Position numbers and translations under genes: made by a program. Of a stretch of DNA of 64,000 nucleotides, positions 24,352-51,732 are shown in pieces; position 1 is the stretch's first letter, and each line of letters starts with the position of its first letter. This DNA comes from Escherichia coli (GTDB lineage Bacteria; Pseudomonadota; Gammaproteobacteria; Enterobacterales; Enterobacteriaceae): the NCBI RefSeq assembly GCF_965641715.1, contig NZ_OZ282453.1, one strand, 5' to 3'. The notes below the pieces were generated by a model. That model was not told where the DNA came from, did not search any database, and was given only the letters and a program-made list of their open reading frames with translations.

Positions 24352-24364
24352 ACAAAATAGCGGG

Positions 24365-24470
24365 ACATGTAGGCCGGATAAGACGCTGTAGGCCGGATAA
24401 GACGCGTCAGCGTCGCATCCGGCAATCAGCATCCGGCAATCAGCGTCCGGCAATCAGCATCTGCCGGTCA
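24365..24470. repeat. REP cluster (BIME-like)
   Basis: Two copies of gtaggccggataagacgc followed by three tandem copies of atccggcaatcagc. Confidence 0.6.
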
Positions 24471-39132: not shown

Positions 39133-40532
39133 ACACTCGCCAGCTACTGAGCGTCGGTATCGATATCGGCACCACCACCACCCAGGTGATTTTCTCCCAC
39201 CTGGAACTGGTTAACCGTGCGGCGGTGTCGCAGGTGCCGCGCTACGAATTCATCAAACGCGAAATTAGCTGGCAAAGCCCGGTGTTCTTTACCCCTGTCG
39301 ATAAACAGGGTGGTTTAAAAGAAGCGGAACTGAAATCGCTGATTTTAGAGCAATATCAGGCTGCGGGCATTGCGCCGGAAAGCGTTGATTCTGGTGCCAT
39401 CATCATCACCGGTGAAAGCGCGAAAACCCGCAATGCTCGCCCGGCGGTGATGGCGCTCTCTCAGTCGCTGGGCGATTTTGTCGTCGCCAGCGCCGGGCCG
39501 CACCTCGAATCCGTGATCGCCGGTCACGGTGCCGGGGCGCAAACCCTTTCTGAACAACGGCTGTGTCGGGTACTGAATATCGACATCGGCGGTGGCACCG
39601 CGAACTACGCCCTGTTCGATGCCGGAAAAATCAGCGGCACTGCCTGCCTCAACGTCGGTGGTCGCCTGCTGGAAACCGACAGCCAGGGGCGCGTGGTTTA
39701 CGCTCATAAACCGGGGCAGATGATTGTGGATGAGTGCTTCGGCGCAGGCACCGATGCCCGTTCGCTGACCGGCGCGCAGCTGGTGCAGGTTACCCGGCGG
39801 ATGGCAGAGCTGATTGTCGAAGTGATTGACGGAACGCTTTCGCCGCTCGCGCAGGCATTAATGCAAACCGGTTTGCTGCCCGCAGGTGTTACGCCCGAAA
39901 TCATTACGCTTTCTGGCGGCGTGGGCGAATGTTATCGCCACCAGCCCGCCGACCCGTTCTGTTTTGCCGATATTGGCCCGCTTCTGGCAACGGCGCTGCA
40001 TGACCATCCGCGCCTGCGTGAGATGAACGTGCAGTTTCCGGCGCAAACCGTGCGCGCCACGGTGATTGGTGCGGGTGCACATACCCTTTCGCTCTCTGGC
40101 AGCACAATCTGGCTGGAGGGCGTACAACTGCCGCTGCGCAATTTGCCGGTGGCGATCCCAATTGATGAAACGGATCTGGTGGGTGCCTGGCAACAGGCGC
40201 TGATTCAGCTGGATCTTGATCCCAAAACTGACGCGTACGTGCTGGCGCTTCCCGCCTCGCTGCCTGTGCGTTACGCCGCGGTACTGACGGTCATCAACGC
40301 GTTGGTCGATTTCGTCGCGCGTTTTCCGAATCCGAATCCCCTGCTGGTGGTGGCCGGGCAGGACTTTGGTAAAGCTCTGGGCATGTTGTTGCGCCCACAG
40401 CTACAACAACTCCCGTTGGCAGTCATTGACGAAGTGATTGTCCGCGCGGGGGACTATATCGACATTGGTACGCCTCTTTTTGGCGGATCGGTTGTGCCGG
40501 TGACGGTGAAATCACTCGCATTTCCTTCCTGA
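39129..40532 (+). CDS. eutA: ethanolamine ammonia-lyase reactivase EutA
   Basis: 467 aa MNTRQLLSVGIDIGTTTTQVIF...; stop TGA at 40530-40532 abuts the island. Confidence 0.85.
   Translation: MNTRQLLSVGIDIGTTTTQVIFSHLELVNRAAVSQVPRYEFIKREISWQSPVFFTPVDKQGGLKEAELKSLILEQYQAAGIAPESVDSGAIIITGESAKTRNARPAVMALSQSLGDFVVASAGPHLESVIAGHGAGAQTLSEQRLCRVLNIDIGGGTANYALFDAGKISGTACLNVGGRLLETDSQGRVVYAHKPGQMIVDECFGAGTDARSLTGAQLVQVTRRMAELIVEVIDGTLSPLAQALMQTGLLPAGVTPEIITLSGGVGECYRHQPADPFCFADIGPLLATALHDHPRLREMNVQFPAQTVRATVIGAGAHTLSLSGSTIWLEGVQLPLRNLPVAIPIDETDLVGAWQQALIQLDLDPKTDAYVLALPASLPVRYAAVLTVINALVDFVARFPNPNPLLVVAGQDFGKALGMLLRPQLQQLPLAVIDEVIVRAGDYIDIGTPLFGGSVVPVTVKSLAFPS
40525..40532. repeat. left junction direct repeat (att core candidate), overlaps the eutA stop codon
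   Basis: cttcctga, identical to 51725-51732; surrounding 20 bp are imperfectly similar. Confidence 0.5.
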
Positions 40533-40626
40533 ATACTGTAGTTATCAGGCGTGGCGCTGGGTGGCTGGGTGTTAGTGGGATTATATCCGGCTGTGTATCC
40601 GGTCGGGGTGATTGGTCTGTATAGCA

Positions 40627-40647
40627 GAAAACCCGGCGCGGGGCCGG
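40627..40647 (-). terminator. rho-independent terminator of the eutA-proximal cargo gene
   Basis: cccggc gcgg gccggg hairpin with a U tract on the minus-strand transcript; a near-identical copy is at 42316-42337. Confidence 0.6.
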
Positions 40648-40655
40648 GTGAACTA

Positions 40656-41216
40656 TCACTCAGGGAACAAGTTGATTTGAAGCAAACTGCCAATGTATTT
40701 ACCAGTGCTTTTAATTTTTCGCTTTGATGGCTTACACGAATTCAGGTTGACACCAGCCTGGCTAGATATTGGCTTGTATTGCCGCTCCGCCAGTACGATC
40801 AGGTCTGCCGCGTCTTTTAGCTTTCCATCGTTAGCCAGTTCCAATGCTCGATCCGCCATTTGCCCGCATTGTTGAATCAGCTTAAGTTGCGATACCTCCA
40901 GTCGCAATTGCTGGATTCGTTCTACCACTTTCGCCCTAATGCGCTTAGTTTCACGCATTCCCATTCTTAATGCCTGGTTGCCAGTAAGTGAGTAAACCTC
41001 TTTTTCTTTCCTGAAGTTTGCGGCTTTACCGTCAGCTTGGACGCGCATTTTATGCGCTTCCAAGAATTCGCCCTCCAATTCATCCCTGATCTTCGCGTTG
41101 AATCTGTCGTTCTTGAGTTCATTTAACCCTTCCGCCTTGCGGATCTGGTTGATTAACTCCAACAATTCATCACTGCGGATACGCCACTCGCTATCAACCT
41201 GTACCAAGTCAAACAT
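40656..41216 (-). CDS. hypothetical protein (island cargo); function unknown
   Basis: ORF track 40656..41309 begins at a TTG; the internal ATG at 41216 (MFDLVQVDSEWRIR...) has a GGGAG Shine-Dalgarno 6 nt upstream, giving 186 aa; basic C-terminus; own terminator. Confidence 0.55.
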   Translation of the reverse strand: MFDLVQVDSEWRIRSDELLELINQIRKAEGLNELKNDRFNAKIRDELEGEFLEAHKMRVQADGKAANFRKEKEVYSLTGNQALRMGMRETKRIRAKVVERIQQLRLEVSQLKLIQQCGQMADRALELANDGKLKDAADLIVLAERQYKPISSQAGVNLNSCKPSKRKIKSTGKYIGSLLQINLFPE

Positions 41217-41380
41217 GTTGTTGCTCCCGTTTTGCTGCCATAGGGCAACGGCTCGCCAGCCTTTATCACCTCCTTTAGTTGTTGCGATTCTTAACTGAAT
41301 GGTTATCAAAACGCTGCGTTAATATCATTGATATGTATCAAATTTGTTTTGTGACGCGACAATGCCTTGTGAATATCAAT

Positions 41381-41404
41381 AAAAAACCCAGCGCTATGGC
41401 TGGG
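41381..41404 (-). terminator. rho-independent terminator of the HTH cargo gene
   Basis: cccagc gctatg gctggg hairpin with a U tract on the minus-strand transcript. Confidence 0.55.
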
Positions 41405-41437
41405 CTTCGTTTAATGAGATGGGATTGAAAGCGGGTT

Positions 41438-42220
41438 TTATTTATCTCCCAGATTGTATTCCCAGTTGGGAAGTAAAGTTATCAGCTTGTCACCTTTCTT
41501 GCCTTTGCCGATCTGGTTGCCGTTCTCGTCTTTCTTGTGTGTGATTTCCTGGTCAACCTTAATCAATCCTCTCTCTTTGGCTTGCTCAATCAGTCGGTAG
41601 AATGCGCCGTTACTAATCGGCTTCCGGTTACCGTCGTTATCCATCGCAGTGATTTTCTGTTGCAGTCCGGCGTTATTGCCCAGGTATTCGCCACCTAACG
41701 CCGCCAGTACCTGACACAACATGCCGACACTGTATTTTTTCGGATTTGGGTTAATCCATTCTTTAGCTCCCATCTCTTTTTTGTCGTTGGGCGCTTGTTC
41801 TGCTGCTACTGCGTTCACCTTTTCATCTCCCATCTTGTTACCGCTTGCTGTGCGCTTAATTTCTTCCAGTTCTCTCTCAAGCTCACCTATACGTAATTCA
41901 CGCTCGATAATTACCCCGCGCAGCACATCATCATCACCGTGAGGGCTTGCCTGAATCCAGTTACCATTGGCGAGCGGTAGGAGGGCATAAATTCCGAACA
42001 GGTCACAAAGCGCGGCAAGTGTATTAAAATCAGGTTCCCGGCGTCCCTCCATCCAGTGGCTAACAGCGCCTTTTGTGACTGGTTCGCCTTTCTTGCTTTT
42101 AACACCCATGCGATCCAGTGCGGCGGCTATCTCTTCGCATTTAATGCCACGACCGCCAGCATAGCCCGCCGCTTTCGCGGCCCCTTTGAGGATGTCGTGA
42201 ATTTTCATTTCGTAACTCAT
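41438..42220 (-). CDS. XRE/Cro-C1-type helix-turn-helix domain protein (island cargo)
   Basis: ORF track 41438..42235; preferred start is the second ATG (MSYEMKIHD...) with a GGGAGA Shine-Dalgarno; HTH-like segment IKCEEIAAALDRMGVKSKKGEPVTKGAVSHWMEG; coiled-coil middle; Lys/Gly-rich C-terminus. Confidence 0.6.
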   Translation of the reverse strand: MSYEMKIHDILKGAAKAAGYAGGRGIKCEEIAAALDRMGVKSKKGEPVTKGAVSHWMEGRREPDFNTLAALCDLFGIYALLPLANGNWIQASPHGDDDVLRGVIIERELRIGELERELEEIKRTASGNKMGDEKVNAVAAEQAPNDKKEMGAKEWINPNPKKYSVGMLCQVLAALGGEYLGNNAGLQQKITAMDNDGNRKPISNGAFYRLIEQAKERGLIKVDQEITHKKDENGNQIGKGKKGDKLITLLPNWEYNLGDK

Positions 42221-42226
42221 AATTTT

Positions 42227-42257
42227 ATCTCCCATCTCATGAACTATGGTGGGAGAT
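42227..42257. promoter_or_regulatory. perfect 8-bp inverted repeat (atctccca N15 tgggagat) over the start region of the HTH gene
   Basis: Arms at 42227-42234 and 42250-42257; one arm contains the Shine-Dalgarno and first ATG of the minus-strand gene; tgggagat recurs at 42958-42965. Confidence 0.45.
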
Positions 42258-42315
42258 TAACACGGCGGGCCTGTGGCGGGTAAGTGTAACGGGAGAGAAT
42301 GTTGATTCAGGTCAC

Positions 42316-42337
42316 AAAAACCCGGCGCGGGGCCGGG
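42316..42337 (-). terminator. rho-independent terminator of the 158-aa cargo gene
   Basis: cccggc gcgg(g) gccggg hairpin with a U tract on the minus-strand transcript. Confidence 0.6.
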
Positions 42338-42359
42338 CTGTGTTAGTACGTCGTTGCTC

Positions 42360-42836
42360 TTAGTTCATGAGGAGATCTTTAAATTCGACGCCGTATTCAT
42401 GGGCAATGTCGCCTCTATAGTAGATGTTATCTTTCAGGATATATCCGACGTTTCTCAGGACGTGAGAACACTCTCTTACTGCTGCCTCTTTACCCCTTAA
42501 AACATCCTCCCCGCTAACTTCTTCGCCGCTGTACTTCACTGCGATGTTGTCTGCTGCACGCTCTGCTGCTTCCAGGCAATTAATCTTCACTTTTCCCCGA
42601 TTCTCCCAGGCAAAATCGCGGCCATAAATCCCCATTGCATCAACCATCTTTTGCGCAGTAGTGCGCTCATCCACCCATTCAGTGCGTTCGAACTTCTCGC
42701 CAGCAGCTACCCTTGCCGCCAGTTGTTCGTGTTGAGTCTGTACGGCCGCAGCCTCTTCTTCCCATTTGCCTTGCTCGTTGTATACGATGAAGCCAGTGAT
42801 GACTGCAGCGATTAGTAACTTGTCCAGAAAATTCAT
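42360..42836 (-). CDS. membrane-anchored hypothetical protein (island cargo)
   Basis: 158 aa; AGGAGG Shine-Dalgarno 5 nt upstream of the ATG; single N-terminal hydrophobic helix LLIAAVITGFIVY followed by a charged soluble domain. Confidence 0.6.
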   Translation of the reverse strand: MNFLDKLLIAAVITGFIVYNEQGKWEEEAAAVQTQHEQLAARVAAGEKFERTEWVDERTTAQKMVDAMGIYGRDFAWENRGKVKINCLEAAERAADNIAVKYSGEEVSGEDVLRGKEAAVRECSHVLRNVGYILKDNIYYRGDIAHEYGVEFKDLLMN

Positions 42837-43120
42837 AGCTTCCTCCTATCTGTTCAATTACCCGGCATCTCTTGCCGTTGAACGTATTAAACAAAATGCC
42901 AGTCAGGGATAAAGCGATCTGCGTCATAAAGTCCATCCCCCATCTCATTGATATTGATGGGAGATTGTTTAATTGGTCAGAAATTAAGCGTTTATGTGCG
43001 CTGCCGGGTATCCACCTCCTATCTGAAGATGGAAAGATGGGTGATATAATGTGATGGCAATTGGTGGATTGCGTGGTTTTTACAATGATAAGGGGCTGGC
43101 GTAATGCTGGCCCCTTTGTT

Positions 43121-43162
43121 TATCCGGTATCCGGTATCCGGTATAAGCGGGCGTGTATCCGG
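43121..43162. repeat. cluster of four tatccgg motifs (three tandem 7-mers plus one)
   Basis: tatccggtatccggtatccggtataagcgggcgtgtatccgg; related copies at 40584-40602 and, inverted, at 51558-51565. Confidence 0.5.
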
Positions 43163-43356
43163 TAGCGGGGATATGGGCGCGTGTACGTGAAATCTGGCAA
43201 ATTAGCAGGGTAATTGTGAGGGAATTTTTGCGTAGGAGCGTTTGTGGCTGGTAGCTCAAAATTGAGCTTTGCTTTTCATTCAATGACTTAGGTTAATTCT
43301 AGCAAAACGCTAGGATTGAATGTCCGCCAGTCTGCTTCCCCTAGCGTGGGATTTGG

Positions 43357-45723
43357 TCAACGTCTGCGCGGCTGCAAAATTCCTCCGGGTCGTTGTGATT
43401 CACGCTGCATCAGTCGCATCGCTGTGTTTTCTATGGTCTGCTGCAGCGCTTTTGAGTCTTCCTCTGTCCAGCCGTTGTTAGCCTGGATGTTGAACGTATT
43501 GTTCATCGTGATTCCGCCACCGCCTACCAGATCGCGGCCCGGTGTAACTCGTCCACCTTCACCCGGGATCATGTACTGTTTCCCGCCAGTGGATGTAAAT
43601 AGCTCCGGTACTCCGTGCTCCCCGACCCTATAAAGATTGCCACCGTTAACAGCCCCGCCGTTGTAACGAGCGCCAGCCAGTCCAAGCGTTTTGGCGGCAG
43701 CTACGCCAGTAGTAAGCCCGGTAAGTCCAGTGGCCCCAGCGCCGCCCATCGTGGCTACGTTAGCCAGGTATGCAGGAGTGGCCCACGCCGATCCTAATGC
43801 TGTAGCCTCTGCTAGTGCTTTAGCTGTTGCGGCTGCGTTTGCGGCTTCACCAATTAGCTGCTGTTTAACCCACTCAGCACCCATCTGGACAATGCCACCG
43901 ACCACAGAAGACAGGATCGTACTGCCAACGTTGGCAAGTGACTCTTGCAGCGATTGAGTACCGTTTATCAGTCCGGTAAATGCGCTGCCAGCGCCAGACG
44001 ATAACCCATCGACCATATTCCCGATGAGGCCATTTATATCGCTTTGTTTCTTCCACTGCTGCCACTGGAGATCCAGAACCCTTTGTTCATGTGCGATCTC
44101 TTCCTGGCGCAACTGCTCTTCGGTAGCCCCAAGATCTAGAAGCATTTGCTTGCGAACAGCCCATTCATTTTGGATCTTCTGTATTGGGTCAATCTGAGCT
44201 TTCTGCTTATCCTGCTCACTGACAAGACTGTCCCATTTCGCTTTCTGCTTGCGGATGGCTTCAGCTTCATCAATTGCTGCGAGTGTACTTGCTCGCTGTT
44301 TCGCGCTGATCAACCGTTTCTGCTCAGCCGCTTCCAGGTCTTCTACTGCTTTTTTCCGTTTATTGAGCGCCGCTAGTTCGGGATCGTATTTTTCCACCAA
44401 TGAAAGGCCGCTTGCTTCCTTACGTTCGCGTTCTCTTTGTGCCTGTTTGGCTGCCTGCTTAGCGGCGTTTTCTGCTTGTTTGGCTGCTCTTTCTTTCGCC
44501 CTGGTGTTCTCTTCTTCCTTGCGCTTATTCTCTTCTAACTCCTTGTTTTGTTCGCGTAATTTAACGATTTCCTCATGATGCGCCTTTGTCAGCTGGCCTT
44601 CTTTCAGTGCCCGATCTATATCAGCGTTTGCGTTGCCTTTTAGCTGTTCCTGTTTAACTTGCAGATGTTTAATCATCATTTCGCCAGTGGCAATCGCTGC
44701 CGCAGACGCTCCAGCATTCAGAGCTTCATTTAACGCTCTCTGACGTTCTTCTGCTGTTAATGCCTCGTTGCTGTATCGAAGTAGCGCATCAACGTATTTC
44801 TCCAGTTCTGCGCGGCCTGCCGCAGTTGCTGGTTCCATTGCTTTTAGGATGCTCAGAAGGCTTTGCGCTTCATAGGAAGACGGGTTTTTGCGGAACTGCG
44901 CCATAGCGTTATAAAGCGCCATAGCTTCACCCTCTGTGATTCTGTACTTAGCTCCCAGCCCTTCAATGACCGCTGATAACTGTTTGCCAAGCGCTGCACC
45001 GAATGCGCCTTCCTTGCTTAATTTGTTGAGCACTTCACTCAGTGAATTTCCTGACACGCCCAGCGCGTCGAGTTCTCTTGCTACCGTTCCCAGGTCGCCG
45101 CCTTTCATCCATCCTGCATTAGAAAATTCAGTGATAGCCCGGCCCGCTTCCCGCGTTTCTTCCTGGAGTGTTTTTAGCGCCCGCACGGCCTGCTCTTTCA
45201 TTACGGCGGCGGCAATGGCGTTGTTCTGTGTGGCTTCGTAATATGAATCACTGAAAGCGTTAACGCCCTGGGTGGATTTGCCGATCACGGCGTCGATTGA
45301 TGCTAATGCCTCCTTCATCCTTTCAGCGCTATCCGTTGCGTCGTCCATGCTGTCCGTTAGGCTGTTGGCAATCGCCCCGCCAATAGCCATCACCGCCCCC
45401 ATGACCGCACCGCCAGTACCGAAGGCAGCGGCAAGTTGTGCACCCTGCACAGCGAACGCCTGGAGCGCATTACCGCCCATCTGCAATTGAGTGGCAAGGT
45501 CTGCGATCTGGTATGATGCGTTACGGATTGCCGGGGAAAGGTTGGTTTTGACTGCGGCAGACGTTTTGGTCATCTGCGTGTTCAGTTTTTTGACGCCACT
45601 GTCAGCGCGTTTTGCGCCGCGTTCTATACTGTCAAAAGCCTGGTCCGCTTCTTGTTGTGCTGCCAGGAGTTTACCAGTACGGGCGTCGACCTCATAGTAT
45701 ATGGTCCCAAGATTCCCACTCAT
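43357..45723 (-). CDS. phage tail tape-measure protein, lambda gpH-like
   Basis: 788 aa; N-terminal Gly/Ala-rich hydrophobic segment (GGAVMGAVMAIGGAI); long Ala/Lys/Glu/Gln-rich coiled-coil centre; C-terminal Gly-rich region with NLYR and NNTFNIQ motifs resembling the lambda H C-terminus as recalled; no Walker A motif. Confidence 0.7.
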   Translation of the reverse strand: MSGNLGTIYYEVDARTGKLLAAQQEADQAFDSIERGAKRADSGVKKLNTQMTKTSAAVKTNLSPAIRNASYQIADLATQLQMGGNALQAFAVQGAQLAAAFGTGGAVMGAVMAIGGAIANSLTDSMDDATDSAERMKEALASIDAVIGKSTQGVNAFSDSYYEATQNNAIAAAVMKEQAVRALKTLQEETREAGRAITEFSNAGWMKGGDLGTVARELDALGVSGNSLSEVLNKLSKEGAFGAALGKQLSAVIEGLGAKYRITEGEAMALYNAMAQFRKNPSSYEAQSLLSILKAMEPATAAGRAELEKYVDALLRYSNEALTAEERQRALNEALNAGASAAAIATGEMMIKHLQVKQEQLKGNANADIDRALKEGQLTKAHHEEIVKLREQNKELEENKRKEEENTRAKERAAKQAENAAKQAAKQAQRERERKEASGLSLVEKYDPELAALNKRKKAVEDLEAAEQKRLISAKQRASTLAAIDEAEAIRKQKAKWDSLVSEQDKQKAQIDPIQKIQNEWAVRKQMLLDLGATEEQLRQEEIAHEQRVLDLQWQQWKKQSDINGLIGNMVDGLSSGAGSAFTGLINGTQSLQESLANVGSTILSSVVGGIVQMGAEWVKQQLIGEAANAAATAKALAEATALGSAWATPAYLANVATMGGAGATGLTGLTTGVAAAKTLGLAGARYNGGAVNGGNLYRVGEHGVPELFTSTGGKQYMIPGEGGRVTPGRDLVGGGGITMNNTFNIQANNGWTEEDSKALQQTIENTAMRLMQRESQRPGGILQPRRR

Positions 45724-46012
45724 AATATCTTTATCCGCGTTGTGCGGACACCTCCGATTATTCTTTACTCTAATAATTTCACAATGAAACAGTTTATTGC
45801 CGCTTCAGTGGCTTCGTGTTCCGGTTTGCTTCGATCAATCACAAAAAATACAGCTTAATAGAATCAATGGCTTATAAAGTTGTATTAGCTATGTTTCTTC
45901 GTCCGTGCCACTGAAAACCCAGTTTTTCCAATGGAATCAATACTGATATGTATCCATACTGTTTTTCACATAATGTACGTTATGCGCACTACGGGAAACG
46001 TACTGAATTTAT

Positions 46013-46243
46013 TTACTGGTCGCCGTTCAGTTCATGCAGAGTCTGTTCTGGCAATGAATCCAGCCAGTTTTCTGCATCCTCCCTGTAACACTCCAGGATG
46101 CAACGGTTTGTGAAGTTGATGAAAGCGGTCAGTGATTCTGCTTCGTCGTTCCTGTGCGTTCTCCTGGCGTGCTTGCGTAGTCGTTTCGCGTCTGCCAGTT
46201 GGTCATTGAGTATCTTCAGTCTGTCGGCAATATCATCGTTCAT
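46013..46243 (-). CDS. hypothetical small protein
   Basis: 76 aa; GGGAGA Shine-Dalgarno 6 nt upstream of the ATG. Confidence 0.45.
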   Translation of the reverse strand: MNDDIADRLKILNDQLADAKRLRKHARRTHRNDEAESLTAFINFTNRCILECYREDAENWLDSLPEQTLHELNGDQ

Positions 46244-46430
46244 GTCGTCTCTCCCTCGCGCGCGCGTCGTACTTGTCCGAAAATTACCCCCATAAAAGCG
46301 CCCCTCATATAGTGCAAAATCCCGGCTGACGCGGATCTCAGTGGGTTTTAGCAGTGAAAACTGACATCAAAAACGGCTCGCTAAGGTCCGCTAAGTATCC
46401 GCTATCGTTCGCTAACCCCCCGCTAACCTA

Positions 46431-46796
46431 TTAGATATCGCATCCAACGCTATTGAGCTGGCTATGTATATCGGCGCGAATTAACTTCAGGCGTTTACAA
46501 AATTCGCGTTCTTCCGAATTAAGCTCGCGGCCACCTTGTTTCGAGGCAATGAGCTTGTTGATGGTGGAAAGCGAATATTCACTCCATATACGAAGCATTT
46601 GTCGCTTCATTGGTTGCTCGCTCAATGGTGAGTTTTTCAGGTCTGACACGCGCTCTGCGACGGTTCTTGCGATGCCTTGTACCACTCGTAGTGCCAACAT
46701 GATGATTTTCTCCGGACTTGTGCTAATATAGTTCCCGAACATTGTTTCGAGACTGCTTATCCTGTTTGTCTTGTCCGATTTGTTCATTGGTCGCAT
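46431..46796 (-). CDS. hypothetical protein
   Basis: 121-aa ORF in the same orientation as, and closely spaced with, the upstream 180-aa ORF. Confidence 0.45.
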   Translation of the reverse strand: MRPMNKSDKTNRISSLETMFGNYISTSPEKIIMLALRVVQGIARTVAERVSDLKNSPLSEQPMKRQMLRIWSEYSLSTINKLIASKQGGRELNSEEREFCKRLKLIRADIHSQLNSVGCDI

Positions 46797-46838
46797 TGTT
46801 AAGTCAGCCGGGGTAATTCCCGGCTTTCTTTTATCCGA

Positions 46839-47381
46839 TCAGTACCGAATCCCTATCGCATTGAATACGCGTTTCCGTTGCTCAGCTTCAGGATCGGCGG
46901 CCATTTCTGGTTCTGGCTCCGGCATAGACGGGGCGGCATCAAAATGCTCAATTTCACGACCGAAATACGAGTTCAGGTCAATACCTGCCGAACTATCCAC
47001 TCCATCAAAATAGCGACGCTGTTCCTCGGTGAGACAGCTACCCAGACGTTCCTCAACCTGCGCCATAAACTCAGCATCCGGTGAGAAGTACTCATCCGGA
47101 GTCGGAGCACCGCTCTGTTTGTGCATCTCCATTTTCTCTGCGTTCGTTTTCAGCCCGGCAATGCGTTTCTCCAGTCCGGCGGCTTTAATAGCGTCAGCAA
47201 CGATTTGTGGGATCTGCGGTTTAATTATTTCGATAACTTCATTGCTGATTAATTTAAACTGGGCCATACGGATCGCTTTAATCTGCTTATTTAACAGTGC
47301 GCGTTCCCCTTCGTTGGCGGTTTTATCACGCTGTGCTACCAGTTCATCGCCTTTGTTTGTCAGTACATCAAATGCGTCCAT
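46839..47381 (-). CDS. hypothetical protein
   Basis: 180 aa; strong GGAGGAGG Shine-Dalgarno 7 nt upstream; acidic Pro/Glu-rich C-terminal tail; 17 nt downstream of the 108-aa ORF. Confidence 0.55.
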   Translation of the reverse strand: MDAFDVLTNKGDELVAQRDKTANEGERALLNKQIKAIRMAQFKLISNEVIEIIKPQIPQIVADAIKAAGLEKRIAGLKTNAEKMEMHKQSGAPTPDEYFSPDAEFMAQVEERLGSCLTEEQRRYFDGVDSSAGIDLNSYFGREIEHFDAAPSMPEPEPEMAADPEAEQRKRVFNAIGIRY

Positions 47382-47398
47382 TGTCTTTCCTCCTCCGA

Positions 47399-47725
47399 TT
47401 ATTTAAAAGTGCTTATTGACACGCCGAAACGACGACTTAATTCAAAAAGGAGTCGCGCCTTTGCAGTGCCTTCCATGTCTTCCGGCATTTCAGACTGAAG
47501 TTTATCAGCTACTTCATCAACAAGTGGCCGAACCGTTTCCACGAACTTGTCCGCAATATAATCAGCAGAACGCATCACTTTTTCCTGGAATTCCTCACGG
47601 CGTACCTGGGCGGCTGATTTAGGGGCTGTCGTGCGCTGAAAATAACTGTCTAATGAATGCATGGCATCTGCTCCTTTTACTTTGATTGCTGTTATTTCTT
47701 TAATTGTGTTTGCTTTGATTTTCAT
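47399..47725 (-). CDS. hypothetical protein
   Basis: 108-aa ORF starting 76 nt downstream of the AlpA-like gene. Confidence 0.5.
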   Translation of the reverse strand: MKIKANTIKEITAIKVKGADAMHSLDSYFQRTTAPKSAAQVRREEFQEKVMRSADYIADKFVETVRPLVDEVADKLQSEMPEDMEGTAKARLLFELSRRFGVSISTFK

Positions 47726-47801
47726 GCTGCCTATTCCTTCAGAAATTGCGGTAGTTTGCTTTTTAAATCAATAAGTTATTTGATAATCTCAGTAGCTGTT
47801 T

Positions 47802-47993
47802 TCATTGGTGGCGAGCGCCTTTGTTTTTATAGAATTCCAAAATCTCAGATCGGATAAACTTAATTCTTGAGCCAATCGGACTGACCGGGACGGGCCAGCC
47901 TTTAATCTTGTTCATCCACCGGAATATTGTCCGACGGGTAACGCCGAATAAAGCTGCTACCTCGTTAACCGTCATTAATTCGCTATCATTCAT
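47802..47993 (-). CDS. excisionase / AlpA-family DNA-binding protein
   Basis: 63 aa; HTH MTVNEVAALFGVTRRTIFRWM typical of excisionase-family domains; GAGGTGA Shine-Dalgarno. Confidence 0.7.
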   Translation of the reverse strand: MNDSELMTVNEVAALFGVTRRTIFRWMNKIKGWPVPVSPIGSRIKFIRSEILEFYKNKGARHQ

Positions 47994-48003
47994 GTTCTCA
48001 CCT

Positions 48004-48046
48004 CAAAAAGTAGCGGTGAGGAAAATATGGAGAAAACCCTCACCGC
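48004..48046 (-). promoter_or_regulatory. terminator-like hairpin in the leader of the AlpA-like gene (candidate attenuator)
   Basis: Minus-strand RNA reads GCGGUGAGG, 16-nt loop, CCUCACCGC, UACUUUUU, then GAGGUGAGAAC AUG; the 3' arm could alternatively pair with the Shine-Dalgarno. Confidence 0.45.
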
Positions 48047-48220
48047 GCCCTGAATGAAATTAAAGACCAACATTACTGTTGATACTTATTATTATATTCC
48101 TCCTGTCCCTGTTTCACATCTTTTACCATATAGTGAAAGGGGATATTCTGTAATGTTTACAAAACTTTTAATTAGCAAAAAATAATTGCGCATCTCACGT
48201 AATGCAGGGATAATATTACT

Positions 48221-48306
48221 CAAGGGCTGGTTGCCCTTACTCAAAATGTGATCTATAACTACAACGATCTATTTCACTTCCCCGCTTTCTCCGGCGGGAT
48301 TTTTTT
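48221..48306 (+). ncRNA. candidate small RNA (~86 nt), divergent from the AlpA-like operon
   Basis: Promoter-like TTGCGC (48186-48191), 17-bp spacer, GATAAT (48209-48214); internal hairpin agggctggttgccct; terminator cccgc tttctccg gcggg plus T7 at 48281-48306; no ORF. Confidence 0.4.
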
Positions 48307-49115
48307 GCCTGCAATCTGGCACCATTGCGCACATTAAAATTAGATGCCATTTAAAAGCGATATAACGCGTTCTGCCGGGCTTAATTTTGGCTATCCACTT
48401 GGAAGGGTAAGCCTGTTTTGATTCGTCTGGCGTGGAATGGTGCGGCGGTAATATCAGATCTCAGCGTTCTGCGTGGTGGGATGAAATAGCCTGGCAGGAT
48501 TTGCGTGTGGTTTGCTCTCCCAAAAAATGGGGTAATGGCGCTGGCTGGATGGCAGGACTCCGCGCTGATTACTGGATGGCTGAAAATTTAATGAAATCGC
48601 ATCAATTTTAATGCGTCTAAATCGCTCTGTGGCGACGTGAAGTTTTCAGGTAAGCAAGTGTAGCTGTGTGGTGTGTTCATCGCGTTACTGGCACCATTCC
48701 GTTCGAATTTGGCGCTATCAGGATGGTTTGCGGTGGTCGGCGGCGGGGATAAACTTGCTTGAGTGGTCACCTCAGCCTGCTGTGCGTCGTGTGATGGTAC
48801 TGTCTGCACCTGGCTATACGCTGCTTTGCTGCTGTTTCCTGTCTGGTCTGTATACGCGATAAAACCCATCGGCTTTACAGTGAGTGAGTTTTTTGCGCTT
48901 TGCTTTCCATTCGGTTTGCTTACTGCTGCTGTGTGTCTGTGCGGTAGCTCAGAAAGCTGTCGATGATAACCATCACTGCCAGACCGTCTTTTGAGCTGGC
49001 GATTGCTCGAAGTCTTCCGAAGGTCCGCTGGGCTTGTTGCTTGTTTGTGTTCTTTTAAAATGCGCGCCTCTTACTTTCTCTTAAAAAGAAAAAAGGAATA
49101 TACAGATCTCATACT

Positions 49116-49275
49116 ATGTGTGTCCCAAATGTCACACGTCATGGCCTGACCTGTATCCCAAATGTCACACGTCACCCTCTGACCTGTATCCCAAATGTCA
49201 CACGTACCTGTGTCCCAAATGTCACACGTCTATTGTTAATTAATTGTTGACCTGTGTCTCAAATGTCACACGTCT
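49116..49275. repeat. iteron array: five direct repeats of about 22 bp
   Basis: Copies start at 49116, 49149, 49182, 49206, 49250 (spacings 33, 33, 24, 44 bp); core cccaaatgtcacacgt; AT-rich ttgttaattaattgttga between copies 4 and 5. Confidence 0.7.
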
Positions 49276-49292
49276 GTTGATGGTTTAAGTAA

Positions 49293-49319
49293 TAAAAAGG
49301 GCCACCATTTTAGGTGACC
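49293..49319 (-). terminator. rho-independent terminator of the wHTH gene
   Basis: gggccacc atttta ggtgaccc hairpin (one G-U pair) with a U tract on the minus-strand transcript. Confidence 0.5.
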
Positions 49320-49338
49320 CATTGATGCGTTTTAGTCG

Positions 49339-50103
49339 TTATCTTGCGTTCTCGACCTGAAAAAGCATTCTGTATTTTCTTGCGTGCTGACCAATAACAT
49401 ATTCCCCGTATGGCTCAATGAGTCCTAACTCAACCAGGATTTTCATCTGGCGAATTACGGTGCGGCGATTCATGCCCCATTCATCAGCTATTTTTGCCTG
49501 GCAAACTTCAGATACATAAGATCCATCATTCTGCTTTCTTGCTGCTGATGCAATGCTGGATAATACGCTCCAGGCTGTAGCTTTAGCTTTATTCTCGCAA
49601 CCACTTCTGACAAATGCCTTACGTGCCGCACCCAAACAGACATAACTGCAATAAATTCCTTTTTCTTCCGTTTGGTATTGTGTCTCTTTATCCTGCATGG
49701 CTTCCGGTTCTTCCGGCGCTTCCTGCTGTGGTGCTGTCTGCGAAGTTTTAGCGGCCATACTGCGTAGCTCGTTCACGATATCAGTAGCTGATTTCTTCTC
49801 GCTTTTAGTTTCCTGCGTGACTGATAAATACTCACCTTGTAACGCCAGGAAGTCAGCGCGGGCGTTTGCCTGGCTTTGTTCTGGTGATTCAGGTTCTGCA
49901 TCGGCAGGTGATGAAATCGGTGATACACGCGCCCAGCCTGTTTTGGCGTTGCATTCCCAGCGATAACCATTAAAGCGGATATCATTCAGGCCATCATCAA
50001 TGGCGCTCCGTACTTCTTCCGGGATCGCGTCGATTTTCTGAAGGCTGTGTTTACCGAGTGATTCGCCTTGCCGTGGGGCGTAGGCGGTTGGTAAAATATT
50101 CAT
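49339..50103 (-). CDS. winged-helix DNA-binding protein, putative replication initiator or repressor
   Basis: 254 aa; AAGGAGA Shine-Dalgarno; acidic low-complexity middle; C-terminal HTH-like EVCQAKIADEWGMNRRTVIRQMKILVELGLIE; iteron array immediately downstream. Confidence 0.5.
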   Translation of the reverse strand: MNILPTAYAPRQGESLGKHSLQKIDAIPEEVRSAIDDGLNDIRFNGYRWECNAKTGWARVSPISSPADAEPESPEQSQANARADFLALQGEYLSVTQETKSEKKSATDIVNELRSMAAKTSQTAPQQEAPEEPEAMQDKETQYQTEEKGIYCSYVCLGAARKAFVRSGCENKAKATAWSVLSSIASAARKQNDGSYVSEVCQAKIADEWGMNRRTVIRQMKILVELGLIEPYGEYVIGQHARKYRMLFQVENAR

Positions 50104-50315
50104 GTGGGATTTCTCCTTTTTACTTGTTTCCCATATCGCCCGGATTGGTTAGCGGCCTTCCGGGCTTTTTGTTGCGTTGATCCTATTTTCGATCCCCGGA
50201 TTTTTTATTACAAACTTGGCTTAATCATTGATTTTATTGGTATAGCTGTATAAAAGGATAACAGGATAAAAGGGTGATAGATTGTGTAACCTGTTAACCT
50301 TTTATACCAGTAAGG

Positions 50316-50342
50316 CGAAAGAAAAGCCGGACGAATCCGGCC
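50316..50342 (-). terminator. rho-independent terminator after the integrase gene
   Basis: gccgga cgaa tccggc hairpin with a U-rich tract, 8 nt past the integrase stop. Confidence 0.5.
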
Positions 50343-50349
50343 TTATAGT

Positions 50350-51555
50350 TCACGGCTCCAGCGGATTACCGCCACCAGCCAATATCTGGTCGATGGCGTC
50401 GCTGTAGTCCTGCATCATGGCCCGCCGTTGCTTCAGATAGGCCGCCTGGTTATAAACGCCGCGCACACCTTTCGGAACGTGGGCCAGTTGGATTTCGATC
50501 CAGTCTGGTGAGTATCTGCCGTACTCGTTAAGTGCGGTTGAAAAGGTGGTTCGCCAGCCGTGACCAGTGGCTATCGACTTGTATCCGATACGCTCCAGGG
50601 CTTTAAGGATGGCACTGGCTGAAAGTGGCTTATCCATGAATCGACCAGGGAACACAAAAGCACTGTATCCGCTGCGGGTAAACTGGTCCTGTAATAGCTC
50701 GACCGCCTGCCGGGATAGCGGGACCACATGCGGGCGGCGGGCCTTCATGACTTCAGCGGGTAGGGTGATGGTTGCCGATTCCAGATCTACCCACTCCCAG
50801 CGCATTAAACGCAGTTCTGCGGTCCTTAGGGCGCTTAATATAAGCAAACGTATTGCCGTCTGAATCTGAACGCTCCCGGCTCTCTCAAGGGCTTTGTAGA
50901 AGGCCGGGATTTCGTTAATTTGTATCCATGCGTTATGGCCTGGGCGTCGGGCTTTCAATGCCGTGTCCAGATCTGCAACCGGATTTCGGTTAACCAGTTC
51001 AGTGATAACGGCAAATTTGAAGATTTCCCCTATACGCTGCCGTAATTTTCGGGCCTGTTCCGGCGCGGTGCGCTCTTTCTTCTGAAGCAATGCCAGCACG
51101 TCACGGGCCGTTATATCGACAATCGACCGCTTGCCAAGTACCGGATAAACATCTTTCTCCAGTGCCGATCTAACTTGTTTCGTGTAAGACTCAGACCAAC
51201 CGCTCACTCTGGTAGCAAACCAGTCTTCCGCTACCGTCTTAAAACTTGCCGCCATGTTGAGCGCATCAATGGCTTTCTCCTTGCGCGCTTCTTCCATTGG
51301 GTCAATTCCCTGGGCGATGAGTAAACGGCTCTCTGTGGCGCGTTTACGTGCTTCCTTCAAGGTAATCAGCGGATATACCCCAATAGCCTGTAACCGCTCT
51401 TTCTTGTCTATCCAGTACCGGAATCGCCAGTATTTGCTGCCATTGGGATGTACCAGCAAGAACAGGCCAGGTGTCTGTGAATCGGTGAGTTTGTAGGGCT
51501 TGTCCTTCGGCTGGGCGGCCTCTATGCCCTTTGCTGTCAGTGGTGTCTTGCTCAA
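50350..51555 (-). CDS. P4-type tyrosine integrase (site-specific recombinase), intZ-like
   Basis: 401 aa; N-terminal arm-binding domain (PYKLTDSQTPGLFLLVHPNGSKYWRFRY); C-terminal catalytic region with the HGWRTTFSTALNE and RGVYNQAAY motifs. Confidence 0.85.
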   Translation of the reverse strand: MSKTPLTAKGIEAAQPKDKPYKLTDSQTPGLFLLVHPNGSKYWRFRYWIDKKERLQAIGVYPLITLKEARKRATESRLLIAQGIDPMEEARKEKAIDALNMAASFKTVAEDWFATRVSGWSESYTKQVRSALEKDVYPVLGKRSIVDITARDVLALLQKKERTAPEQARKLRQRIGEIFKFAVITELVNRNPVADLDTALKARRPGHNAWIQINEIPAFYKALERAGSVQIQTAIRLLILSALRTAELRLMRWEWVDLESATITLPAEVMKARRPHVVPLSRQAVELLQDQFTRSGYSAFVFPGRFMDKPLSASAILKALERIGYKSIATGHGWRTTFSTALNEYGRYSPDWIEIQLAHVPKGVRGVYNQAAYLKQRRAMMQDYSDAIDQILAGGGNPLEP

Positions 51556-51724
51556 AACCGGATACCTCGATCTAACGACTCGATAACCCCGCTCATGTAT
51601 CCGTCGCGTTCGGTTGCGTTCGGCAGGATAAGTAACGGGCGTATTAAGTGGAACACCTTACAGGACAAGGGATAACGATGAAATAGAATTGTTCGAATGC
51701 TGTGAAAAATGTTACTCATCACTT

Positions 51725-51732
51725 CTTCCTGA
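51725..51732. repeat. right junction direct repeat (att core candidate), immediately 5' of the eutB ribosome-binding site
   Basis: cttcctga, identical to 40525-40532; followed by gggaacgactt ATG (eutB). Confidence 0.5.

Follow-up and report, generated by a model that had tools for sequence, protein, structure and literature searches.

Predicted arm-type sites of the IntZ integrase and a separate, variable heptamer array in a CPZ-55-family prophage island of Escherichia coli

Why does one short motif, TATCCGG, gather at both ends of a prophage island and once more in its interior? The question arises in a window of 64,000 nucleotides of the E. coli chromosome (contig NZ_OZ282453.1), the whole stretch of DNA analysed here, in which an island at ~40.53-51.73 kb belongs to the CPZ-55/intZ family of cryptic prophages and occupies the junction of eutA and eutB. 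An earlier note on the same DNA took the heptamers for arm sites of the integrase or of a recombination directionality factor (RDF), and suggested from the internal cluster (43121-43162) that the island might consist of two fused elements or carry a modular cargo cassette. When the window was re-read, all of the heptamer coordinates given there were correct, as was the length of the gap that holds the internal cluster (non-coding, 42837-43356, 520 bp).

Between its cores the island spans 40536-51724, a length of ~11.2 kb (Table 1). K-12 CPZ-55 carries the identical 8-bp duplication CTTCCTGA at its borders (PMC6379469). The window contains no tRNA or tmRNA gene that could serve as insertion target; the target is the eutA/eutB junction. 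At the eutB end, intZ encodes a tyrosine integrase with an N-terminal Arm-DNA-bind_3 domain (PF13356, residues 6-93, E = 1.5e-24). Integrases from phage genomes are at most ~43% identical to IntZ, and a scan of species-representative genomes with IntZ peptides returned two remote relatives only. The island contains a tape-measure gene without capsid, terminase or other tail genes, and defence-system and NCBIfam models found no match among the cargo proteins. None of 5426 complete E. coli genomes contains the exact island, which is a mosaic of three types, with a leftmost gene of the OW1E2/CEA106S type, sequence of the ATCC 8739 type up to ~43.68 kb and a remainder of the USMARC-49610 type. A promoter-like site in the int-side arm (AGGACA-16-TAGAAT, window 51662-51689, + strand) points outward into eutB and might drive eutBCLK downstream of the insertion.

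Table 1. Features of the island in the window, with three features of related elements in the last rows (positions there are those of the related sequences).
Feature	Position	Strand	Basis or remark
attL core copy CTTCCTGA	40525-40532	+	overlaps eutA stop codon; read directly
Int-distal arm, two direct TATCCGG 12 bp apart	40584-40602	+	52-70 bp inside attL core; candidate arm-type sites
Intrinsic terminator, end of leftward cargo genes	40631-40649	-	terminator scan
Variable distal module, three genes	40656-42836	-	Pfam and PHROG matches
Ant-like protein, 217 aa	40656-41309	-	Pfam/PHROG
yffS-like HTH protein, 265 aa	41438-42235	-	Pfam/PHROG; yffS homology
158-aa protein, no assigned function	42360-42836	-	Pfam/PHROG searched
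Small transcription unit	43042-43120	+	terminator scan; end abuts first heptamer
Three perfect tandem TATCCGG	43121-43141	+	copy number varies among strains
Fourth heptamer within imperfect palindrome TATCCGGTAGCGGGGATAT	43156-43174	+	most conserved unit of internal array
Conserved block B (GGGCGCGTGTACGTGAAATCTGGCAAATT.GCAGGGTA.TTGTGAGGGA.TTTTT.CGTAGG), ~63 bp	43175-43237	+	alignments by eye
Tail tape-measure gene, 788 aa	43357-45723	-	phrog_1538, E = 8e-112
Several small ORFs	between 45.7 and 49.3 kb	-	
Excisionase/AlpA-like HTH_17 protein, 63 aa, candidate RDF	47802-47993	-	PF12728 7e-9; TIGR01764 excisionase domain
HTH_36 protein	49339-50103	-	weak matches only; initiator-like
intZ tyrosine integrase	50350-51555	-	PF13356 1.5e-24, PF22022, PF00589; intZ annotated in relatives
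Int-proximal arm, inverted pair	51558-51604	-	CCGGATA and one-mismatch TATCCGT 40 bp further out
attR core copy CTTCCTGA	51725-51732	+	directly 5' of eutB; read directly
Arm layout with another motif, integrases 44-45% identical to IntZ	L025 2448-2500; L027 2450-2500		TACCCCC/GGGGGTA
141-aa ORF, integrase arm-binding domain	L016 15145-15570; L015 17217-17642; also L012 728-1153		
attP-type junction	L012 1154-1395		distal arm, core CAGGAAGAA, int-side arm, int; short assembly contig

On the + strand of the island the heptamer begins at 40584, 40596, 43121, 43128, 43135 and 43156, its inverse CCGGATA lies at 51558-51564, and one further copy is found inside intZ (51141). The GTATCCG at 51597-51603 is part of a one-mismatch copy, TATCCGT (51598-51604), and most relatives have a perfect TATCCGG at this place. 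These eight heptamers compare with 0.96 expected in the island; with the tandem triplet counted once they amount to six independent events, a number that 0 of 500 dinucleotide-preserving shuffles reached, and seven of the eight fall in three non-coding stretches that total 810 bp. Across the whole window there are 18 heptamers against 5.7 expected, and 18 was reached in 0 of 100 shuffles. The enrichment, for which the earlier note suggested a statistical check, is thus confirmed by count, and a similar motif density in chromosomal sequence elsewhere, which by that note would have refuted it, was not borne out: of the ten copies outside the island, five belong to REP elements (GCCTTATCCGGCCTAC) and the others are at background level. 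The E. coli REP consensus itself includes TATCCGG. However, the REP palindrome context (GCCGGATGCGGCG...CGCCTTATCCGGCCTAC) that surrounds five copies outside the island is missing around those within it, which rules out REP/BIME elements as the identity of the island heptamers. A BIME-like intergenic array at 24360-24460, unrelated to the island, consists of two REP copies (GTAGGCCGGATAAGACGC) followed by three tandem units of 14-15 bp (CATCCGGCAATCAG) and contributes to the window-wide excess. In the related elements L016 and L015, which hold 6-7 heptamers each, above compositional expectation and unclustered, single copies sit at conserved positions (L016 2769 and 9478; L015 1749 and 8538; contexts tgctgTATCCGGt and gtttTATCCGGt); those of L016 are intergenic, and L015 8538 is inside a called gene.

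The two end clusters have the layout of arm-type sites. Measured from the attR core, the inverted pair is found at 121-174 bp, and its inner member, CCGGATA, is placed between the Shine-Dalgarno sequence and the start codon of intZ. In all E. coli variants examined, K-12 included, the distal arm consists of two direct copies at 12-bp spacing and the int-side arm reads CCGGATA-N33-TATCCGG; K-12 CPZ-55 has five heptamers, of which four are arm copies laid out as in the window. More distant integrases, 65-72% identical to IntZ (L009-L012), keep the inverted pair at the matching place. For three of them (L009, L010 and L012; 65-68% identical) the int start is preceded by CCGGATA-N33/34-TATCCGG, set in int-side arm DNA that cannot be aligned with the window apart from the core. 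When the int-side arms are aligned, the long invariant runs coincide with the core and both heptamers, and with a short GAGTC that the heptamers flank. On the distal side TGTATCC does not vary, and it is retained in the divergent L016 element as well, where the distal copies are degenerate only (TATACCT, TATCCCT); the full heptamer is therefore not strictly required there. Integrases of Klebsiella and Pectobacterium, 44-45% identical to IntZ and inserted beside tRNA genes, have another motif in the same layout: TACCCCC adjoins the start codon, and 38-52 bp upstream GGGGGTA occurs twice at a spacing of 12 bp. A constant position combined with a sequence specific to the integrase clade is the behaviour predicted for arm-type sites.

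The end clusters accordingly combine a cognate integrase bearing an N-terminal arm DNA-binding domain, a motif distinct from the core and repeated in both arms within ~200 bp of it, and conservation of motif and position among related integrases, with a switch of motif between clades. On this part the earlier note has held up: TATCCGG is very probably the arm-type motif that IntZ grips in both arms of its att sites. Its alternative, that the AlpA-like protein or RDF binds the heptamer, fares less well. Between the window and L009 the excisionase-like proteins have no detectable similarity while the arm domains of the integrases are 71% identical, so that Int is the likelier binder, as far as can be inferred from such sequence comparison. 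The literature on CPZ-55 and IntZ that we searched reports the 8-bp duplication, and we found no arm sites in it.

In the mechanism that we propose, the IntZ clade among the P4-type tyrosine integrases would recognize TATCCGG (extended, TRTATCCGGT) as its arm-type motif, with the two direct copies on the eutA side and the inverted pair at the intZ start codon as arm sites. Int would hold these heptamers by its N-terminal domain while its catalytic domain acts at the CTTCCTGA cores. Since one heptamer separates the ribosome-binding site from the start codon, Int probably also damps its own expression. A simple promoter scan detected no intZ promoter overlapping the proximal sites, so this negative autoregulation is proposed by analogy only, with KplE1, where arm sites overlap the expression signals of intS and IntS represses its own gene (PMC2951348).

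A free-standing ORF of 141 aa in related elements (Table 1) corresponds to an integrase arm-binding domain alone and is 41% identical to the N-terminus of IntZ. It stands last among the genes of a larger eut-locus element, and its stop codon is 4 bp away from where an extended eutA of 491 aa is annotated to end and ~70 bp away from the att core. This ORF may be what accretion left of an integrase, now truncated, or else a protein that binds arm sites by itself.

The internal cluster is of a different kind. Its heptamers agree with the extended consensus TRTATCCGGT and point the same way as those of the distal arm. Tandem Repeats Finder (TRF) reports a 7-bp repeat of 3.4 copies with 100% match (43121-43144), enclosed by a 28-bp repeat of 2.1 copies (43127-43185). 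The array starts directly after the T-tract of a + strand terminator and ends at block B, and in the ~15 alleles seen it is always exactly at this joint. What varies is the number of heptamers. There is none in OW1E2 and USMARC-49610; one, that of TATCCGGTAGCGGGGATAT, in O157:H7, L024 and L045; two, 18-21 bp apart, in L020-L023, L033 and L056; two together with a mutated TGTCCGG in L014, L019 and L031; three in 13P460A; and four in ATCC 8739 and the window. 14EC029 and K-12 likewise have no internal heptamers. The tandem part itself has three copies in ATCC 8739 and the window and two in 13P460A, other strains having 0-1 or TGTCCGG. As 13P460A and ATCC 8739 are near-identical in sequence except for one 7-bp unit, the difference bears the signature of slippage. 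Perfect head-to-tail copies that are polymorphic between close alleles make the triplet a variable-number tandem repeat (VNTR).

The fourth copy behaves otherwise. The 19-mer TATCCGGTAGCGGGGATAT is missing in L003, L004 and L006, and is identical in the O157:H7 type, L021-L024, L031, L033, L045 and L056, remaining unchanged in lineages with 10-20% divergence in block B. O157:H7 and LH13-b have lost the terminator through independent deletions, both of which end exactly at a heptamer edge. The identical 19-mer and these deletions hint at some constraint and fit poorly with pure neutrality. We dropped the idea that the internal site of O157:H7 arose by tandem duplication of a distal-arm segment, since the L014 allele makes O157:H7 a deletion derivative. 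Iterons of a replication origin, which are several repeats of 17-22 bp beside an initiator gene in an AT-rich/DnaA-box region, were also rejected: the array has a 7-bp unit, 6 kb separate it from the closest gene resembling an initiator (49339-50103, weak matches), and many relatives lack it.

Could the internal cluster nonetheless serve in recombination, as the earlier note proposed? A search allowing three mismatches gave no core copy near 43.1 kb, in agreement with the note's own failure to find a convincing third copy there; the best core match elsewhere in the island has three mismatches and lies inside a gene. No fixed short distance or phasing ties the array to the attL core, from which it is 2.6 kb away in the window and between 0.49 kb (O157:H7) and 2.6 kb away among relatives, and its presence among functional relatives ranges from zero to four copies. 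Scans of viral and metagenome sequences with the 19-mer yielded mostly chance matches in unrelated coding sequences; the true relatives among them were five (L014, L031, L033, L045 and L056), all in the context of the window at the eut locus and none adjoining a core. With no core nearby, a variable distance and 0-4 copies, the internal cluster is, on these comparisons, neither an att site nor part of the intasome, and it is dispensable; its proposed role as a recombination arm is not upheld. We suggest instead that duplication of a 28-bp unit and 7-bp slippage produced the array, and that its seat, the joint of terminator and block B, would be the inner edge of the variable distal module. The whole account, in which TATCCGG is the arm motif of IntZ at the island ends and the internal array is a separate, dispensable product of slippage and duplication, has in our estimate a probability of roughly 0.6.

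The sequences on either side of the array are conserved in their own right. The small transcription unit that abuts it has an extended -10 element (TGATATAAT, 43042-43050) and a terminator hairpin with T-tract (43090-43116; fold z = -3.0), which is kept across variants by G-U changes and one compensatory change. It is antisense to the leftward operons. In relatives the -10 element and hairpin are kept and the 5' part is different (GCGGGGAUUGUGAGAAAGG). Rfam gave no family at gathering score over the window and the gap, and noise only at E up to 10. The unit could be a prophage antisense or immunity-type small RNA next to the Ant-like module. Block B, between the heptamer array and the stop codon of the tape-measure gene, is found in 300 of 5426 complete E. 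coli genomes, irrespective of the cargo. Its segment GGGTA.TTGTGAGGGA resembles the 5' part of the relatives' small RNA on the matching strand, so that a minus-strand transcript would carry a second, imperfect target for that RNA.

Beyond the array, towards eutA, the island is modular. Between the distal arm and the tape-measure gene the window and ATCC 8739 carry three genes, USMARC-49610 a GrpE-like protein and an HTH protein, 14EC029 a single small gene, and O157:H7 an A-rich filler without genes, and other strains have IS1, gadC and murI. The attL-to-tape-measure region therefore varies independently among strains when islands are compared, which supports the modular cargo suggested in the earlier note. 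The low-complexity filler (aaaataaaaaaggaaaaaaccaaaacc...), ~350 bp long, stands in many strains in place of the distal genes, from the attL arm to the heptamer unit (L002 5640-5990, O157:H7; also L014, L018, L019 and L020). Another island variant has an AIPR-family gene of abortive-infection type 5' of the tape-measure gene (L005 7131-8837), and a further one holds the IS1, gadC and murI copies (L018 2157-6010); by these variants the island is a landing pad for varied cargo.

A fusion of two elements, the other proposal of the earlier note, is unlikely. No third att core marks the internal junction, no integrase-like ORF is present in 40.6-43.1 kb, and there is neither a second integrase or remnant nor an independent occurrence of each part. 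In the middle of the cargo stands a homologue of yffS, the last gene of K-12 CPZ-55, and in 5426 E. coli genomes the cargo is found at the eut locus only and once per genome. The right part occurs without the left in O157:H7; the left part is never alone or elsewhere. Against phage genomes the distal module gave no DNA or protein match.

A more specific form of this idea is that the cluster is the leftover int-distal arm of a second intZ-family element, once in tandem at eutA/eutB, and that deletions removed the integrase, proximal arm and shared core of the left element and stranded the arm sites of the right one. The right half of the internal array (TATAAGCGGGCGTGTATCCGGTAGCGGGGAT) does match the distal two-site block at 24 of 31 positions, ungapped, with orientation and 12-bp spacing unchanged (E = 4e-4, the search space being small), but TRF attributes the first half of this match to the tail of the internal 28-bp duplication. 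In OW1E2 the 32 bp that come after the distal arm sites recur as a second, internal copy, yet both there and in L014 ~150 bp separate the duplicated arm flank from the heptamer position, which it does not adjoin. That the family forms tandem copies or circles is indicated by the junction in L012 (Table 1), which joins the distal end of an L016-type element through a core to the int-side arm of the next copy, and thus implies that the sample contained an L009/L016-type element in tandem or in the form of an excised circle. The L012 junction and the OW1E2 duplicate leave some room for ancient accretion followed by decay. Against it count the want of a core within reach of the cluster, of a second integrase and of any integrase fragment, and the content of the left part, which with yffS holds the normal distal gene of the family; we regard a stranded arm as improbable.

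We rate as similarly improbable that Int, or some other protein of the island, binds the array as a functional secondary locus, a decoy or roadblock tuned by 7-bp slippage that modulates Int availability or transcription among the tape-measure operon, the + strand RNA unit and the distal module. Such a role would suit the exact seat between terminator and block B in ~15 alleles, the 19-mer held identical beside a diverged block B, the two deletions that stop at the heptamer, and copy numbers that differ among near-identical alleles; the 19-mer is moreover an imperfect palindrome, as expected for a dimer operator. However, OW1E2, USMARC-49610 and 14EC029 have no array although terminator and/or block are kept, so the array is not required, and copies spaced by 7 bp would bring a steric clash for a domain that usually needs ~10-12 bp per site. 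A promoter scan of the gap detected no promoter-like site, and the DNA or RNA of the heptamer block shows no significant structure, being no different from shuffles (z = 0.02). The strongest version, a slippage-tunable Int decoy that sets the free Int available for the arms and the int start, and with it island stability, or that gates transcription, is a long shot; if true, the array would be a heritable and reversible dial on prophage excision, made from the recombinase's own arm motif.

That the heptamer binds no protein at all, its clusters being REP-like, compositional or due to chance and the triplet a plain microsatellite, is scarcely credible: the REP consensus includes the motif, half of the non-island copies are REPs and the triplet is as polymorphic as any microsatellite, but the island copies lack the REP palindrome, the shuffles never attained the island count, and composition cannot explain a motif that is fixed in place in unalignable arms and swapped in another integrase clade, a comparison that largely refutes this reading.

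The preferred account, of IntZ arm sites at the ends and a separate internal array, describes what is, judged from sequence, real and fairly ordinary prophage anatomy, in which the new part is the prediction of arm sites for an uncharacterised integrase. With it, IntZ gains a concrete predicted arm-site motif and a map of its att sites; the K-12 cryptic prophage family to which this integrase belongs interrupts the ethanolamine-utilisation operon of hundreds of E. coli genomes. In at least two clades of P4-type integrases one layout rule seems to hold, with a site at the int start codon and inverted partners ~40 bp upstream, and this rule could aid the automatic delimitation of islands and the prediction of autoregulated integrase genes. 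The internal array would be mainly a marker of the mosaic joint at which distal modules are exchanged, and would gain in importance only if bound by Int.

Several known systems resemble parts of this island. As in the tandem accretion of CIME/ICE-type arrays, attP-type junctions are formed in the IntZ family (L012) and the distal part of the island varies independently; unlike those arrays, the window island has no internal att core or second integrase, and its distal part is never seen as a separate unit. With VNTR or contingency repeats, which change by slipped-strand mispairing, the array shares perfect head-to-tail 7-bp copies, two versus three in number between near-identical alleles, with a TGTCCGG point variant in some. 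It differs from them in that its unit is the putative integrase arm motif itself, and, unlike contingency repeats, it stands outside genes and evident promoter spacers, so that no on/off switch is apparent.

The end clusters invite comparison with the arm-type sites of lambda-type and P4-type integrases (P1, P2 and P'1-3 of lambda; IntS of KplE1/HK620). In common are an N-terminal arm-binding domain, a short motif unrelated to the core in both arms at ~50-170 bp from it, and copies within one arm spaced by about one helical turn (12 bp). The motif and layout of the IntZ clade are specific, not described in the literature searched, and the nearest phage integrases are ~43% identical to IntZ. 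In KplE1, and by prediction here, an arm site overlaps the expression signals of the integrase, but in intZ the predicted site falls between start codon and ribosome-binding site and not at a mapped promoter. Closest of all is K-12 CPZ-55 (intZ, yffL-yffS). The window island is larger (~11.2 kb versus 6.8 kb), has a tape-measure gene and a different gene set, and contains an internal heptamer array where K-12 has none; yet both insert at eutA/eutB with the same 8-bp core duplication, carry a yffS homologue at the distal end, share an intZ that is 93-97% identical among E. coli relatives, and are alike in the layout of their putative arm sites.
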